From Piedraia hortae CBS 480.64 (lineage: Eukaryota), in contig MU005960.1 of NCBI GenBank assembly GCA_010093745.1, forward strand, positions 432,849 to 481,346: a stretch of DNA of 48,498 bases. The letters run 5' to 3'. The notes under the pieces were generated by a model. It worked only from the letters and a program-made list of their open reading frames with translations, ran no database searches and was not told the origin of the DNA. Numbering within the stretch: position 1 is the first letter of the stretch; the number at the start of each line of letters is the position of its first letter. This document shows positions 226-7,123 of the stretch, one piece after another. The position numbers and the translations under genes are program-made.

Positions 226-1883
226 ATGGCAGAAGTAATGAATGGACAAGCGTCTCACAGTACAGCCCCAAGACCGCCCATTCCCACAGCTCAGAATGTC
301 ATCTTGATCGACAATTGTATGATGATCATATGACCAACTTTTTACCTCGAAGCTGACCTCGAGCAAGATGACAGTTTTACCTGGAACGTATACCAATACC
401 TCGTACTCGAGGGCGTGCGTTCTATCTAAACCTCAACACATCCCAATCCTAACAAACAAAACAGGCAACCGTTCAAGTTTTCAGAAACGACAAGATTTCC
501 CTAGACGAGCTCATCGCGCAGAAGCCGACTCAACTCGTGGTCTCACCCGGACCCGGACATCCCGATACGGACTCTGGAATCAGTAAAGCAGCCATCGAGC
601 ATTTTGCCGGAAAGATTCCCGTCCTCGGCGTTTGTCTAGGCGAGCAATGCATCTATTCGCTTTACGGAGGAGTTGTGTCCCAGACTGGACAAATTCTACA
701 TGGTAAGACCTCGTCTCTCAAGCATGACGGGAAGGGTATCTACGCTGGACTTCCCCAGGATCTCCCCGTTACGAGGTACCACTCCCTAGCTGGTGCTCAC
801 GCCTCTCTCCCCGAATGTCTAGAGATTAGCAGTTGGGTCGCGGCGGGGCCGGGTGGTGATGGCAAGGGCATCATAATGGGCGTCAGACACAAGGAACTGT
901 TAGTCGAGGGCGTGCAGTTCCATCCAGAGAGTATCTTAACCAAAGAAGGAAGAGTCATGCTGAGGAACTTTCTCCAAATGCAGGGCGGAACGTGGGCCGA
1001 AAACACACGTCTAACAGGTGGCAAACACCCAAATGGCACAACCAACGGCGTCGCTAAAAAACAAGACACGTCGATCCTCCAGAGAATCTACGCCTGTCGA
1101 AGAACTGCCGTTGCGGCGCAGAAGGAGACGCCTTCTCTTCGGCTTGAGGACCTCCAATCCGCATATGACCTTGGCCTCGCACCTCCTTTGATAGACTTCG
1201 CAACTCGTCTCCGACAATCACCCTACAAACTCTCGCTCATGGCAGAGATCAAACGAGCCAGTCCGTCCAAGGGGATAATTTCACTCACCGTCAACGCCCC
1301 CGCGCAGGCTCGCGCGTACGCCCTCGCGGGCGCGAGCACGATCAGTGTTTTGACCGAGCCGGACTGGTTCAAGGGCTCGATACACGATTTGAGATTCGTA
1401 AGGGAGGCTGTGGATGGGATGTCAAATCGGCCTGCGATTCTACGGAAGGAGTTTATTTTTGAGGAGTACCAGATTCTTGAAGCGAGGCTAGCGGGCGCGG
1501 ATACGGTGCTGCTGATTGTTAAGATGCTTGGAGTTGAGGATCTTACGAGGTTATATCATTATTCGAAGAGCCTGAGTATGGAGCCTCTGGTGGAGGTTAA
1601 TACAGTGGAGGAGATGGAGGTTGCGAATAAGTTGGGGGCCAAGGTGATCGGGGTGAATAACCGCAACTTGACCACGTTTGATGTGGATATGGAGACGACT
1701 ACGAGGTTGCTGGGGATGGTTGGGGAGGGTACAATTTTGTGTGCGCTGAGTGGGATTTCAGGGCCGCAGGATGTGGCTGCTTACAAGGAGAAGGGGGTTG
1801 GTGCGGTGCTGGTTGGGGAGGCGTTGATGAGAGCTGAGGAGCCTGCTCGGTTTGTTGAGAATCTCCTTGGTGAGGATTCGTGA
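226..1883 (+). CDS. TRP3: Bifunctional anthranilate synthase component II (glutamine amidotransferase) / indole-3-glycerol-phosphate synthase; TrpC lacking its C-terminal PRAI domain. Exons 226-316, 368-414, 465-1883
   Basis: Manual splicing: ATG 226 MAEVMNG...NVILIDN; intron 317-367 (GTATGA..GCTGAC..AAG); [16 protein letters not shown]; intron 415-464 (GTGCGT..CTAAC..CAG); ATVQVFRND...SPGPGHP. GATase motifs [22 protein letters not shown] motifs [45 protein letters not shown]. Ends [10 protein letters not shown]. Confidence 0.95.
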
Positions 1884-1912
1884 TTTTGTTTTTCTACAGA
1901 GTTATGGAAGAA

Positions 1913-2752
1913 TCAGATCCTCGCCCTAAGCGGCTGCAGGCCAAAGGAATTCCAAAACTCGCGCGAATCGTAGCAACGGCCCAAGGCCTCCATACTTCTC
2001 GGCAAGGCCCTTACATTGTGCTCGACCATGAGCTCAAACACCCATTTTGCTTGTTTGGTAGGTTTCTCGTCCTCTTTGACATCGGCCCAGCCAACAAGCA
2101 ACGACCACCAGTCATAGACGAATCCATCAGTGAGCATCCACCTCTGGCCCTTTCCCAGCTCCTCCCACTTGTCGCGCTGGATCAAGGCCACGATAGACCG
2201 CGCCACATCTAGGCCGTGAACCATATGAAGACTTTTCTTACCCTCTACATCTTCCTTCGTCTTGGTTACTCGGTCAATCCAGTTCCTTGGCATTCTCTCC
2301 CCGCCCCAGAGTCCGGAGAGGTTCAACACGCAGCCGCCGAGAGCCAGGAGCTCGTCCTCGGCCACAGCTCGGGAACCGGTGCGGTTGTGCGGAGAATGGC
2401 GGGTTATCCAATGATCTTTTTGCTCTACACCTTGCCAGATGCTCGAGCTGCCCAGCTGGATGAAGCGGACACTATCCGCTACATGACCAGAAAACGCAGC
2501 TTTGTAGCCGTTCACCAGCCCCTTGCTCTCCCCGCTCCCATTTAGAGGAAATGTGATAAGAACGTGCCTAGCAAGAGGCAAAGCGGTGAAATCACCGTTA
2601 TCATCGAAACTCCATTTAATAGTCTTGAACCCTTCCACATCGCGACCATCACGTGTTGTCGCCGCAAACAACAAACTCGTAGTCTTGAGCAGCGGCAGGA
2701 GAAACGTCCCAGTCCATCCCGCACCGAGTACTAGAATATCGTATTCGCGCAT
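1913..2752 (-). CDS. Uncharacterised NAD(P)-binding Rossmann-fold protein (atypical SDR/epimerase-like), ~279 aa
   Basis: First ATG at 2752 (MREYDILVLGAGWTG, a GxGxxG dinucleotide-binding loop), then ATTR, VLITFP, FIQLGSSSIW, VLNLSGLWG, LHMVHGLDVARSI, typical of extended/atypical SDRs. Ends ...LRARI*. Confidence 0.8.
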   Translation of the reverse strand: MREYDILVLGAGWTGTFLLPLLKTTSLLFAATTRDGRDVEGFKTIKWSFDDNGDFTALPLARHVLITFPLNGSGESKGLVNGYKAAFSGHVADSVRFIQLGSSSIWQGVEQKDHWITRHSPHNRTGSRAVAEDELLALGGCVLNLSGLWGGERMPRNWIDRVTKTKEDVEGKKSLHMVHGLDVARSIVALIQRDKWEELGKGQRWMLTDGFVYDWWSLLVGWADVKEDEKPTKQAKWVFELMVEHNVRALPRSMEALGRCYDSREFWNSFGLQPLRARI

Positions 2753-2812
2753 TGTTTTGCTGAATGGAATCTCCCATTGCCGTTTTACGTCCACAGGCTT
2801 ACTCAGCCCGTA

Positions 2813-3502
2813 TCAGATGGCCTTGACGGTTTCTACAAACTTCCTAATTTTGTTCAGGTCCTGCTTCCCTCCCGTTTCTAACCCACTGCTTGCATCTACA
2901 CCGATGATTTGCCCTTTTAGCTCTGGCCCCACACCTTCCACAACTTCTCTGACGTTATCTGCACGCAAGCCCCCCGCGAGTAGGATGTTTAGGTCCGGGT
3001 TGCGTGTCAGTAGGGTCTTGACTGCAGCGAGAGAGACCCTCTCGCCTGTTCCACCGGCACCTGAGTCGATCAGGGGGATTATATGTTGTTTAGTGCTAGA
3101 TACGTTGCATTCGTCTGCGCTAAAGCTTTTGATGACGGGTTTGCCGTCGAACTCCCCCGCCCAGTCGAGAGGCTCGGAGCCGTGTAGTTGGATGACGTCT
3201 ACGTTGTAGAGGGATGAGATGCGTTGTACCTCGTCGAGGGGTTGGTTTTGGAATACGCCGACGAGAAGCGCTCTTTGGGCGTTGTAGAGACCACTGATGC
3301 TCTCTGGCTGTGATGATGAGGTAGATGGCTTGGAGATGCTATGCACGATGCGAGATATACCTCGGGCATCTTCTGGGGAGACGGTGCGACTCCGTCCCGG
3401 TACGCAGATGATGCCTATCAGGTCTGCACCAGAGAGGATGGCCGTTTCAGCGGCTTCGGCTGTGCGCGTGCCGCAGACTTTAACCAGATGCTTTCTTACC
3501 AT
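2813..3502 (-). CDS. TRP1: Stand-alone N-(5'-phosphoribosyl)anthranilate isomerase (PRAI, TrpF), 229 aa
   Basis: Uninterrupted ORF with the full PRAI motif set: LVKVCGTRT (catalytic Cys), GADLIGII, LVGVFQNQ, DVIQLHGSE, LIDSGAGGTG (catalytic Asp), LLAGGLRADNV, GVDASSGLE, DLNKIRKFV. Confidence 0.95.
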   Translation of the reverse strand: MVRKHLVKVCGTRTAEAAETAILSGADLIGIICVPGRSRTVSPEDARGISRIVHSISKPSTSSSQPESISGLYNAQRALLVGVFQNQPLDEVQRISSLYNVDVIQLHGSEPLDWAGEFDGKPVIKSFSADECNVSSTKQHIIPLIDSGAGGTGERVSLAAVKTLLTRNPDLNILLAGGLRADNVREVVEGVGPELKGQIIGVDASSGLETGGKQDLNKIRKFVETVKAI

Positions 3503-3773
3503 TACAGGTGTCTGCAGGGAGCTATCTCGGATTACATATGTAACTACAGCTTTAGCTTGCGATGACCGAATCAGAAATGCGTAGTGCGTGGCGCCACAAC
3601 TTCTGTCCCGAATCAGCCTCGTCGCAGGCTGAGTGTATACCCACCCCTACTGCAACTGCCTCTATGCTTCAACCCCCTTGCGCAGTTGCCCACAGCAAGC
3701 CACATGTAAGAATCAGTAGCGGGAAAAGGCAGCGCTACAGAGACTGAGCGCCGTCAGCACACCGGCAGCCGCC

Positions 3774-6700
3774 ATGCACCACCGCTCGCGCCTGGTTGAC
3801 CTCCTCATATGGAGTCTGGTGCCGCAGCTGGCCAACGCTCTGCAGAAGCGTCTTGGAGAGGATGTGGCGGCCGGCGGCGTGTCCGGCGGGCTGTCAGTCG
3901 GCCTCCACCAGCCGCCAGACTCGCTCCAGACTACACCGAGCGGCGACAGTCCGTCGCTCGCCCACAAGCTGCCCAATGAGCGCGCCCTTGCGACCTTTGA
4001 CGCTCCGGCCTCGGCCGTCCGAGCATTCAGTTCTGCTTCCGCGGTTCCCCCCACCGCTGGCCTCGCGACGCGGTTAGCGGCGCGGACGCTGCAGGACTGG
4101 CAGGTTGAGGAGTTGATCCTCCTGGCGACTGTTGACGGCTCCATTCATGCGCGTAATCGCTCCACGGGCGCCCCGCACTGGGTTCTGGCGCTGGGCCAGC
4201 CCATGGTCGAGACGACGTACCGCCGCAATAGGAGCGGCGACGGCGTCCCGGAGGACCCCGTCTGGGTCATTGAGCCGACGCAGGACGGCGGAATCTTTTA
4301 CTACGACCCTATTGCTGGCTCCGGCCTCCAACGGCTCGGCCTCACGGTCAAGGAGCTCGCCGATCGCTCGCCCTACGCTTACGAGGGCCCGCCTGCCGTC
4401 GTCTACACTATGCAGAAGCTGAATTCCCTGTATATGATTGATGCCGCCAATGGCTCCGTTATCGGCGAGTTTGGCACCGCTGCTTCGGCCAACAACACCA
4501 CATGTCCGCCAGCCGAAGCGTTGGACGTGAACAGGTGCGAATCTGGACGCATCACCATAGGCAAGACAGAATACATCATTAATATCCAAGATATCAACAC
4601 GCGCGAAGTCATCACTCGTCTCCGCTACTTTGAATGGACGCCCAACAACCGTGATCAGGACCTCTTGGCCGAATACAAGTCCAGCATCGACGGGCAGTAT
4701 TTCTATTCCACGGCCGACGGCACTATCAATTGCATGCAGACGGTGGGCGAAAAGGTTGCGTCTAATACGGCCTTTAACTACACCCTCGACTCTCCCATAG
4801 TCAGGGCTTTTGACCTTGTAAAGCCGACTGGCGATGACGCCAAAGATTCGCCCCTCACCCTTCTCCCGCAACCGCGAGATCCTCTGCTCAAGAGCGTTCT
4901 GCACAACAATCATGGCTCCAGTGAGCGTGTGCGGGTCAACTGCACATCAGATGACAGTTGTTTTGCACTCTCTGAAGTCAACTATCCCGCCATTGCGGAG
5001 GGAATACCTGTAGCTGATTACTATGTCGAACGGGTATTTGGCTATCCCCGTGAAAGCAGTTGGAGAGGCTGGCCCCGGAAACTGTCCGGAGTACACTTTC
5101 TCGATGCACAAGGTCCGCAGCCGATCCGCCGCATCTCTGGTCCCGTCTATCCTGGCATTGAAGGCCCGCCCATAGAGACGGAGAAGCCCATGTCAGAGCT
5201 ATCACCTAAGCAGAGTCCGAGCTACATCACACGGTTTATTTTGCTGTTAACCGTCTTTACCACTCTCCTCGCCTTTTACGTGGCACACACCAAAAAGACC
5301 CCGGCTCAAACCAGGAAGCATGCCAAAGAGACAGTCGAGTCAGACTCCAAGCCTCGATTAGCCCCAGCGGTACGCGAGGCAGAACCTGCCAAAGAGACCA
5401 TCTTTGCTGGTGCAACCGCTAATGAGACGCCCCTCGAGAAGGTAGAATTTCCCGCATCAGAAGAGAAAGAGAACCAGGTGCCAGCGGCTGATGAGGTAGA
5501 GCCCGATCTAGAGCCCAAGGTAAACCATGAGCCGACTCCTGCAGGGGAAGGAGCCGTCAAGCCCAAGGCGAAACATCCGCGGGGCAGGCGAGGTGGTCGC
5601 AAGGAGAAAGAAAGGCAACGATTAGCGGCAGAACGCTGGCAGCAGCAGCAGCAGCAGCAGCAGCCGAGCACGGTTTCCATCCAAGAGTCGGAAGAAAAAT
5701 ATGCGGGTCCGCTGAAGATCAACAACCTCATAATATTCAAGGACAGTATCATTGGTGAAGGCAATGGTGGCACGTTGGTGTTTGAAGGAATGTTTGAAAA
5801 TCGAAAAGTTGCTGTCAAACGCATGCTCTCTCATCACTATCAGCTGGCCTCGCAAGAGGTAAACTTTTTGCAGCAAAGCGACGATCATCCAAATGTCGTG
5901 CGTTACTTTTGCCAGGAAAAGGATGACCACTTCTTGTACATCGCCGTCGAGCTTTGCCAGGCTAGTCTGTACGACATTTGGGAGTTTCAGAGAGCCAAAA
6001 CGGCGGAAAGGCGACAGCAGTTGGAGAACCTCAAAGACCAGATTCAGCAGGACATTCCTTCTGCCCTCTTGCAGCTCGCCAAAGGTCTTTGCCATTTGCA
6101 CGAGTTGCGCATAATCCACCGCGACATCAAGCCACACAACATTCTGGTCGCCTTCCCAAAGCCAGGGCAGACAAAAACCAGAATTGTTATTTCCGACTTC
6201 GGTCTCGGCAGGAACCTACCCGAGAACGCGTCAACCATTGTCGACCCTACTGGCAATGTTGGAACAGTGGGATGGAAGGCACCAGAGCTTATCACGCAGC
6301 ACAAAGAGGGGGACGGTAGGAGCAGCACGTCCTCGGCCACGGCTAGTGACAAGGGCTTGGGTGCGGCCTCGGGCGTTAAACGGGCTGCGGACATCTTTTC
6401 AATGGGGTGTCTGTTCTACTGGGTCATGACGGATGGTGTCCACCCGTTTGCAAACGAATCCGACTACCAGTTCCTTCGCGATCTTCATATCATCAATGAT
6501 CAGAAGAACATGGAAAAGTTGGCTTCTTGGGAAGATACTCACGAGGCCATGACGCTCATCACCTGGATGTTGGAGCACCAACCTGAACGTCGGCCCACTG
6601 CTCAGCAAGTGTTGAACCATCCCTTTTTCTGGCCGCCCAAAAAGAGACTCGCTTTTCTGTGCGATGTGTCCGATCATTTCGAAAAGGAACCACGAGGAAG

Positions 6701-7123
6701 GCACGAGGACGGATACAAGGATGACTCGCCGAACCTCTGTAAGTTTTTTTTTTTTTTTTCCCAACCCTGTTTTCAATCAATCTAACAGTCCAAGGCGTGC
6801 TCGAAGCATGTGCTACAGAGGTCATTGGTCCTAAGGGCAACTTTTTGGCTATCCTAGATAAAGCATTTGTGGATACGCTCGGAAAGCAACGCAAATACAC
6901 CGGTAATCGAATGCTGGACCTTCTCCGGGCTTTACGCAACAAGAAGAATCACTACGAGGATATGACTGACGAGATGAAGCGCAGGGTTGGGCCTCTGCCG
7001 GACGGATACCTAAACTACTGGTGTCGCAAGTTTCCGCACTTGCTCATGGCTTGCTACCAGGTCATACGCACCATTGAGTTGGAGCAGAGTAATCGTTTTA
7101 AGGAGTATTTCATGGCGCTCTGA
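3774..7123 (+). CDS. IRE1: ER-stress sensor Ser/Thr kinase-endoribonuclease Ire1. Exons 3774-6738 and 6795-7123
   Basis: N-terminal signal peptide; luminal domain (LLATVDGSIHARNRSTG, WVIEPTQDG); TM helix (FILLLTVFTTLLAFYVA); kinase (IGEGNGGT, VAVKR, HPNVVRYF, IHRDIKPHNIL, ISDFGL, GTVGWKAPE); KEN RNase domain (DLLRALRNKKNHY). Intron 6739-6794 (GTAAGT, T16 tract, CTAAC, AAG) joins the two ORFs in frame. Confidence 0.96.
5640..5663 (+). repeat. (CAG)8 microsatellite encoding poly-Gln in the Ire1 cytosolic linker
   Basis: Eight perfect CAG units, translated as W-Q8-P. Confidence 0.9.

Follow-up and report, generated by a model that had tools for sequence, protein, structure and literature searches.

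Two genes on opposite strands in place of the fused trpC gene in the hair fungus Piedraia hortae

In filamentous fungi trpC/trp-1 is a classic example of a fused gene, and whether it is fused or split has long served as a character separating yeasts from moulds. How, then, does a fungus come to carry its GATase-IGPS (G-C) part and its PRAI (F) part as two genes on opposite strands, with a third gene between them? This is the arrangement found in a 48,498-bp stretch of DNA from Piedraia hortae CBS 480.64 (assembly GCA_010093745.1, contig MU005960.1, positions 432,849 to 481,346 of the forward strand), hereafter the window, whose numbering we use throughout. A first-pass annotation made from the sequence alone had read the locus as a trifunctional TrpC split into two intact genes by a local inversion of about 1.6 kb. 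We report that the split is real and specific to the Piedraia lineage, and that it probably arose by a break in the linker of a trifunctional trpC, in a history of several steps.

The window is fungal DNA, and its proteins match Piedraia hortae CBS 480.64 entries in database searches. In the G-C gene, the open reading frame (ORF) at 537-1880 (+) matches the class-I GATase family (PF00117, 124.6 bits) and the IGPS family (PF00218, 305.5 bits) of Pfam, the latter over its complete profile (positions 1-254 of 254), and the first 46 GATase profile positions are encoded by two upstream exons. Both 5′ introns (GT..AG; 51 and 50 nt) are absent from an RNA contig (contig 4 of the run X2, see below), which joins 316 to 368 and 414 to 465. 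Spliced from the ATG at 238, the gene has 514 codons, the same length as a protein deposited for the same strain ("IGPS-domain-containing protein", P0121, 514 aa) to which the ORF is 100% identical; an in-frame ATG at 226 is a possible alternative start. Columns invariant in an alignment with 19 fused relatives are kept. The protein ends in LLGEDS at a stop codon at 1881-1883, and PRAI is encoded on the opposite strand, so that the three domains do not form a single polypeptide. A donor-like GTGAGG at 1869 is unspliced in the RNA contig.

The PRAI ORF matches PF00697 (E 3.3e-45; 154.6 bits against a cut-off of 22.7) over profile positions 28-192 (window 2816-3502), as well as the solved TrpF chains in the PDB (E 2e-16 to 6e-7). 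Its N-terminal β1 motif, the VKVCG strand, is visible in alignments (MVRKHLVKVCGT), and Cys10 and Asp146 are invariant in an 11-sequence alignment of fungal and bacterial PRAI. We take Cys10, in the K-x-C-G strand, and Asp146, before the GxGGxG phosphate loop, to be the catalytic residues of TrpF. The public model of this protein (P0001, "N-anthranilate isomerase", 210 aa, same strain) is identical apart from a 19-residue gap: it drops GISRIVHSISKPSTSSSQP as an intron (window 3305-3361, minus strand). Because these residues align with a conserved F-domain stretch (IS..VH...KP) and are retained in the RNA contig spanning 1685-4200, we prefer the 229-aa reading. The G-C stop (1883) and the PRAI stop (2813) are 930 bp apart. 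The first-pass annotation had described a G-C gene stopping right after the IGPS barrel, a complete PRAI ORF (3502-2813) on the opposite strand about 0.9 kb downstream, and two intact halves; the complete profile matches, the full-length ORFs and the invariant residues at catalytic positions bear out this description.

Could the arrangement be an artefact, a mis-oriented segment of a draft genome? We used contigs rebuilt independently (Logan) from two runs of the same organism: X1, a DNA run, and X2, a run from another study whose RNA nature is shown by the two spliced G-C introns. X1 contigs span 1-2240 and 2212-3870, and a 3,909-nt contig of X2 (contig 10) is colinear with window 1685-4200, all without differences or gaps. 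The junction regions that the first-pass annotation had singled out as needing proof, 1883-1913 and 3500-3560, are each bridged in both the DNA and the RNA data set with 0 differences. X1 may be the very data from which the assembly was made, which leaves room for an artefact, but X2 spans both junctions colinearly as well, and the ORFs there end and start cleanly with a stop and an ATG. The split is thereby confirmed and misassembly excluded, the chance of a mis-oriented segment being negligible. Since the RNA contig is colinear with the genome, no splice joins G-C to PRAI. RNA contigs cover both genes.

The split is not ancestral in the wider clade, in keeping with what the first-pass annotation had supposed. 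Among the 120 best matches to G-C in a database search, 118 are proteins of 729-809 aa that combine GATase, IGPS and PRAI; they come from Teratosphaeria, Hortaea, Zymoseptoria, Cladosporium, Aureobasidium and many more. Of the remaining two, one belongs to the window itself and the other, of 624 aa, is encoded on a contig of 2,252 bp. The top matches are TrpC proteins of Teratosphaeriaceae type (76-77% identity). A scan of metagenome contigs gave 80 further trpC loci, 68 of them informative on F. A complete F follows G-C on the same strand in 63, with 25-58 bp between the high-scoring segment pairs (HSPs), and 5 have a partial F cut by the contig end; in the remaining 12 the contig ends within G-C or at most 76 bp after it. 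No split trpC was found among the informative loci (68/68 fused). All informative relatives are fused and the split, known from one genome of the lineage, is specific to the Piedraia lineage. Metagenome gene sets also contain proteins called as PRAI only. Four of these (P0003, P0008, P0011 and P0020) start at an internal Met at the IGPS end (MRA.DT...) and were rejected as stand-alone PRAI, being truncated calls of fused trpC; two others (P0024 and P0025) start MVKICGT and may be of either kind.

Alignment with the 19 fused relatives places the break in the linker between C and F. The G-C protein ends LLGEDS where the relatives read LLGG followed by the linker, and PRAI opens MVRKHLVKVCGT where they read ..RK(P/L)LVKICGT. 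Across 117 fused proteins this linker, counted from LLG to VK(I/V/T)CG, is 15 residues long in 99, with R the commonest residue at position -4 and K at -3. The EDS left on G-C and the 12 in-frame residues that precede VKVCG on the PRAI side, SLQTPVMVRKHL, add up to 15 residues, the modal length; the in-frame translation upstream of the PRAI ATG reads ..RDSSLQTPV. A Met occurs within the final eight linker residues in 9/117 fused relatives. To judge from these sequences, the arrangement is consistent with the linker having been cut cleanly behind its third codon, the new start being a Met that either pre-existed or arose anew. The left junction of the rearrangement must lie within 1884-1912 or the last few G-C codons, and the right one within 3503-3773. 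A candidate remnant of the C-terminal end of IGPS, ahead of the PRAI start codon, was rejected: tblastx HSPs reach 3580, but residue alignments show scattered matches only, and this stretch has no match to the window's own G-C. A scan with bacterial promoter and terminator models, which are not meant for fungi, returned nothing above shuffled sequence.

The isomerase itself carries the signatures of a fused F domain. A residue column counted as diagnostic if one state prevailed in the 45 fused F domains (at least 80%) and another in the 8 yeast TRP1 (at least 75%). PRAI shows the fused state at 7/7 such columns. It does so at 8/8 indel columns as well, which include a five-column insertion ahead of the GVD.SSG strand, found in none of the 8 yeasts and 5 bacteria, and the lack of two one-residue insertions specific to yeasts. 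Its divergence is in proportion to that of its former partner: identity to 24 named relatives is 0.736 for G-C (vs 0.812 among the relatives) and 0.484 for F (vs 0.628), and the ratio of F to G-C distance is 1.97 (1.71-2.23) for Piedraia vs 2.02 ± 0.32 for the 24 relatives (276 pairs). The divergence of F is thus what that of G-C would lead one to expect, without added acceleration or an excess suggestive of foreign origin. GC content at third codon positions (GC3) is 0.590 in PRAI and 0.597 in G-C. When 1.84 billion representatives were searched exhaustively, only PRAI's own model exceeded 52% identity to it, the next-best matches being fused proteins or their fragments. PRAI also lies 0.9 kb from G-C and adjoins a gene for which relatives show linkage to trpC. 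With signatures, proportional divergence and GC3 in agreement, and a tree that is inconclusive, PRAI most probably descends from the fungus's own fused F domain of Pezizomycotina type, as the first-pass annotation had proposed.

The gene between the two halves carries a further trace of the event. Its ORF runs from 2794 to 1913 (-); its homologues in two of the metagenome loci, L005 and L050, begin at residues matching the ATG at 2755, and we accordingly set the gene at 2755-1913 (280 aa). The protein has no Pfam match (E 0.01) but carries a Rossmann-type GAGWTG motif, and its Atlas model resembles bacterial clusters of NAD-dependent epimerase/dehydratase (PF01370) with TM 0.72-0.75, which makes the label "SDR-like" given to it by the first-pass annotation a fair one. 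The homologues (55-58% identity; L005 16242-17174 and L050 18094-18978) are conserved with it to the final C-terminal residue. On a tree of F domains, L005 groups with Teratosphaeria, Meristemomyces and Oleoguttula, and L050 with Neohortaea and Vermiconidia; the genome paper places P. hortae alongside Hortaea acidophila and Acidomyces in a subclade of Capnodiales (PMC7082219). In both loci trpC is followed, further downstream and in the same orientation, by the SDR-like gene. In Piedraia, F and the SDR-like gene are both opposite to the G-C strand and their order is reversed (G-C, SDR-like, F). Flipped strands and reversed order are what an inversion of the block from F to the SDR-like gene predicts.

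We therefore favour, with a probability of roughly 70%, a history in which a trifunctional trpC was broken at its linker by a rearrangement in the Piedraia lineage and the block from F to the SDR-like gene was inverted behind G-C. An ancestral GATase-IGPS-PRAI gene would have been cut within its 15-residue C-F linker by a chromosomal rearrangement, and the block with the PRAI part and the downstream SDR-like gene would have been inverted behind the G-C part. Translation of G-C would then run through three linker codons to a stop, leaving this gene tail-to-tail with the SDR-like gene, and PRAI would start at a Met of the former linker, head-to-head with IRE1 at 271 bp and presumably with a common promoter region. 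A BRCT-domain gene and NDUFB7, discussed below, would have been deleted or moved in a separate step. G-C would act like yeast TRP3, as the amidotransferase partner of anthranilate synthase and as IGPS, and PRAI as a free isomerase of TrpF/TRP1 type. The G-C transcript would terminate within the SDR-like gene, antisense to it; as the convergent stops are 29 bp apart, the two genes must have 3′ untranslated regions that overlap in antisense. With 57 bp left upstream of it, the SDR-like gene may rely on read-through from PRAI.

The 57-bp gap itself would be compatible with a dicistronic mRNA or with a promoter located within the coding sequence of PRAI. The upstream region of the SDR-like gene in L005 is about 460 bp long and shared with NDUFB7.

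A bolder version of this history, which we put forward tentatively and are inclined to doubt, has fission in one step: a single double-strand rearrangement in the linker would have given two working genes, G-C meeting a stop three codons on and F, whose linker piece already held a Met codon, landing head-to-head with IRE1 and borrowing its bidirectional promoter, with neither duplication nor a phase of redundancy. If true, this would be a natural split of a textbook fusion gene whose footprint is readable as linker pieces summing to the ancestral length.

Several observations weigh against the inversion of a trpC block as we have described it. Only 2/37 loci with at least 5 kb of sequence after F carry the SDR-like gene, and in these two, L005 and L050, it lies 4-5.8 kb from trpC, behind a BRCT-domain gene (+) and NDUFB7 (-), neither of which was found in any part of the 48.5-kb window. 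No locus matches the sequence that lies right of 3750 (all tblastx HSPs ≤38.2 bits across the 80 loci), so neither breakpoint can be compared with an uninverted close relative. Repeats at the junctions amount to short matches at chance level, and no duplication or domain relic marks them. A second copy of trpC or PRAI may lie elsewhere in the genome, our analysis covering the 48.5-kb window, and the strand, ends and separateness of the transcripts are beyond the contig data, which give no strand, transcript ends or levels and in which a contig over several genes does not equal one transcript. The phylogeny, too, is of little help. In quick trees with SH-aLRT support, PRAI is the sister group of the 45 fused F domains taken together (63 rows; 93, with yeast TRP1 separate at 93) or placed neither with yeast nor with the fused clade (42 rows; branch 0.76, with the yeast clade apart at 98). 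Its branch is long (0.67-0.76) and sits at the base of the fused clade or outside it, not inside Capnodiales. AU tests reject neither its grouping with 18 named Capnodiales (p 0.205) nor that with 5 yeasts (p 0.249). The nesting among fused F domains expected by the first-pass annotation was thus not obtained, and the PRAI tree alone leaves the origin undecided.

The neighbourhood also calls for more than one event. In 41/80 loci trpC is followed by the BRCT-domain gene, on its own strand, and in 9/80 by NDUFB7 (complex I B18), on the opposite strand; this microsynteny is deeply conserved. IRE1 occurs in none of the 80 relatives' loci, and the gene after the SDR-like gene in L050 encodes a Ser-rich protein instead. 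Four ancestral adjacencies are broken in Piedraia, which implies at least two events: besides an inversion, about 4 kb must have been deleted or relocated. The right-hand neighbourhood may have been rearranged again. One local flip of 1.6 kb, the first-pass annotation's proposal, is therefore insufficient and gives way to a history of several steps. The ancestral order that it had expected (trpC, SDR-like gene, IRE1) holds for the SDR-like gene, which is downstream on the same strand in L005 and L050, and fails for the two genes that intervene and for IRE1. Frequent intrachromosomal inversions are the documented form of gene-order change in Dothideomycetes (PMC3516569), and the P. hortae genome is very compact (16.95 Mb, 7,572 genes; PMC7082219). 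The rearrangement agrees with both the inversion-prone class and the compact genome of the species.

Other histories would lead to a similar locus. The placement of PRAI outside 35-45 fused F domains in the trees, and the AU test that tolerates its grouping with yeast TRP1, are what one would expect had F been lost and a foreign stand-alone PRAI, yeast-like or other, been gained beside G-C. We nevertheless regard such a replacement as very improbable: none of the diagnostic residues or indels is of yeast type, the RK.LVK end of the linker is still present, GC3 and distances follow those of G-C, no closer donor exists among the 1.84 billion representatives, and PRAI sits 0.9 kb from G-C, beside the SDR-like gene that relatives link to trpC. 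An inverted duplication of trpC followed by complementary loss, one copy losing F and the other G-C to leave the PRAI gene, deserves more attention. Duplication and degeneration is a common route to fission and requires no viable intermediate with a broken gene, and a genome as compact as that of P. hortae (PMC7082219) could have erased the remnants. We still consider it unlikely. Upstream of the PRAI ATG there is no convincing relic of an IGPS end, the local alignment there resting on few residues; after the G-C stop there is no room for a PRAI relic, with only 29 bp to the SDR-like stop; the linker parts sum to the modal length without overlap; and the SDR-like gene is single, not doubled. 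The lack of repeat, duplication and relic argues mildly against duplication and loss, since old footprints may be gone.

The split might also be a first step of decay, in a hair fungus with a reduced genome that is losing tryptophan synthesis, with one half unneeded or no longer working. Among 101 Dothideomycetes P. hortae ranks last in both genome size and gene number (PMC7082219), and both of its trpC halves are more diverged than those of its relatives (the G-C and F identities given above). Yet both ORFs are open and of full length, PRAI keeps the columns invariant from fungi to bacteria, including Cys10 and Asp146, and G-C keeps its own; the ratio of F to G-C divergence matches that of relatives, which leaves no extra relaxation to explain, and RNA contigs cover both genes. 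Decay thus has little in its favour, somewhat less than duplication and loss. A linker break with inversion in the Piedraia lineage remains the history that we prefer.

The features of the locus are collected in the table. IRE1, the right-hand neighbour, is recognized by its Pkinase match (E 2.2e-40), followed by Ribonuc_2-5A (E 2.5e-35) in the next exon. Ahead of the kinase domain, its linker holds a poly-Q run from a (GCA)8.7 repeat at 5639-5664, and a T16 run at 6744-6759 marks the start of the intron region between the kinase and KEN exons.

Table. Features of the split trpC locus of P. hortae (window coordinates) and the corresponding segment of two metagenome loci
Feature	Position	Strand	Details and basis
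GATase-IGPS (G-C) gene	238 (or 226)-1883	+	Exons 238 (or 226)-316, 368-414, 465-1883; introns 317-367, 415-464; TGA stop
29-bp spacer between convergent G-C and SDR-like stop codons	1884-1912	.	Sequence
SDR-like gene, 280 aa, conserved fungal protein	1913-2755	-	Start set by homology; Rossmann motif; Atlas model
57-bp spacer, PRAI stop to SDR-like ATG	2756-2812	.	Coordinates
Stand-alone PRAI (TrpF-type), 229 aa, intronless	2813-3502	-	Pfam PF00697; PDB chains; RNA contig
Six in-frame codons (SLQTPV) before PRAI ATG	3503-3520	-	Putative remainder of the former linker, now 5′ leader
271-bp head-to-head region, PRAI ATG to IRE1 ATG	3503-3773	.	Coordinates; covered by RNA contig 10 of X2
IRE1, kinase and KEN/RNase, right neighbour	3774-7123	+	Pfam Pkinase and Ribonuc_2-5A
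BRCT-domain gene and NDUFB7 segment	L005 12757-15779; L050 14392-17829	BRCT +, NDUFB7 -	

The split appears to be unreported so far. No literature description of it was found, and the text of the genome paper, supplements aside, contains none of the words "tryptophan", "inversion" and "mesosynteny" (PMC7082219); both proteins are already deposited as separate database entries. The claim is modest, concerning one species, a known kind of event and an enzyme activity that is predicted. It would nonetheless be a rare second fungal case of an arrangement known from baker's yeast, and an independent, recent-looking fission within Pezizomycotina would mean that the fusion is not locked in. PRAI would then not need to be tethered to IGPS, which speaks against a strict need for channelling. 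The structural history can be read at the locus: a break in the linker, an inverted block, a new head-to-head promoter neighbour for F and a new tail-to-tail terminator neighbour for G-C. Small inversions in Dothideomycetes, it suggests, can occasionally cut a multidomain gene at a tolerated site. The 229-aa reading of PRAI, for its part, corrects the public gene model.

How does this locus compare with known systems? Gene order in Dothideomycetes changes by frequent intrachromosomal inversions (PMC3516569), a pattern called mesosynteny (Hane 2011; Ohm 2012), and the Piedraia event fits in as a small inverted block inside a conserved neighbourhood. Mesosyntenic inversions as reported shuffle whole genes, whereas the Piedraia breakpoint cuts into coding sequence at an interdomain linker and would have given two working genes. 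No simple repeats were found at its junctions, unlike many of the sites described by Ohm et al. Bacterial bifunctional TrpC(F) (PDB 1pii) and monofunctional TrpF (1v5x, 1lbm, 1dl3) belong to the same PRAI family, but the bacterial sequences are only 33-37% identical to Piedraia PRAI, and their domain order and history differ. A close counterpart is the trifunctional TrpC/Trp-1 of Aspergillus type, which has the same three domains and, in its Dothideomycetes orthologues, 70-77% identity in G-C and 44-52% in F. Piedraia F has the fused-type insertions, and the linker ends are kept on both products; in contrast to trifunctional TrpC, the domains are divided in Piedraia between two genes on opposite strands, separated by a third. 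In layout it resembles S. cerevisiae, where TRP1 is separate, other ascomycetes and basidiomycetes being described as having fused G-C-F (PMC9963410): like TRP3 and TRP1, the Piedraia pair divides the work between a bifunctional G-C protein and a PRAI of about 220 aa that stands alone. Unlike yeast, it still has its G-C and PRAI genes 0.9 kb apart, and its PRAI shows 0/7 yeast diagnostic residues and 0/8 yeast indel states when set against 8 yeast TRP1. These comparisons suggest that the Piedraia split is independent of that in yeast, and that its layout has converged on TRP3 and TRP1.

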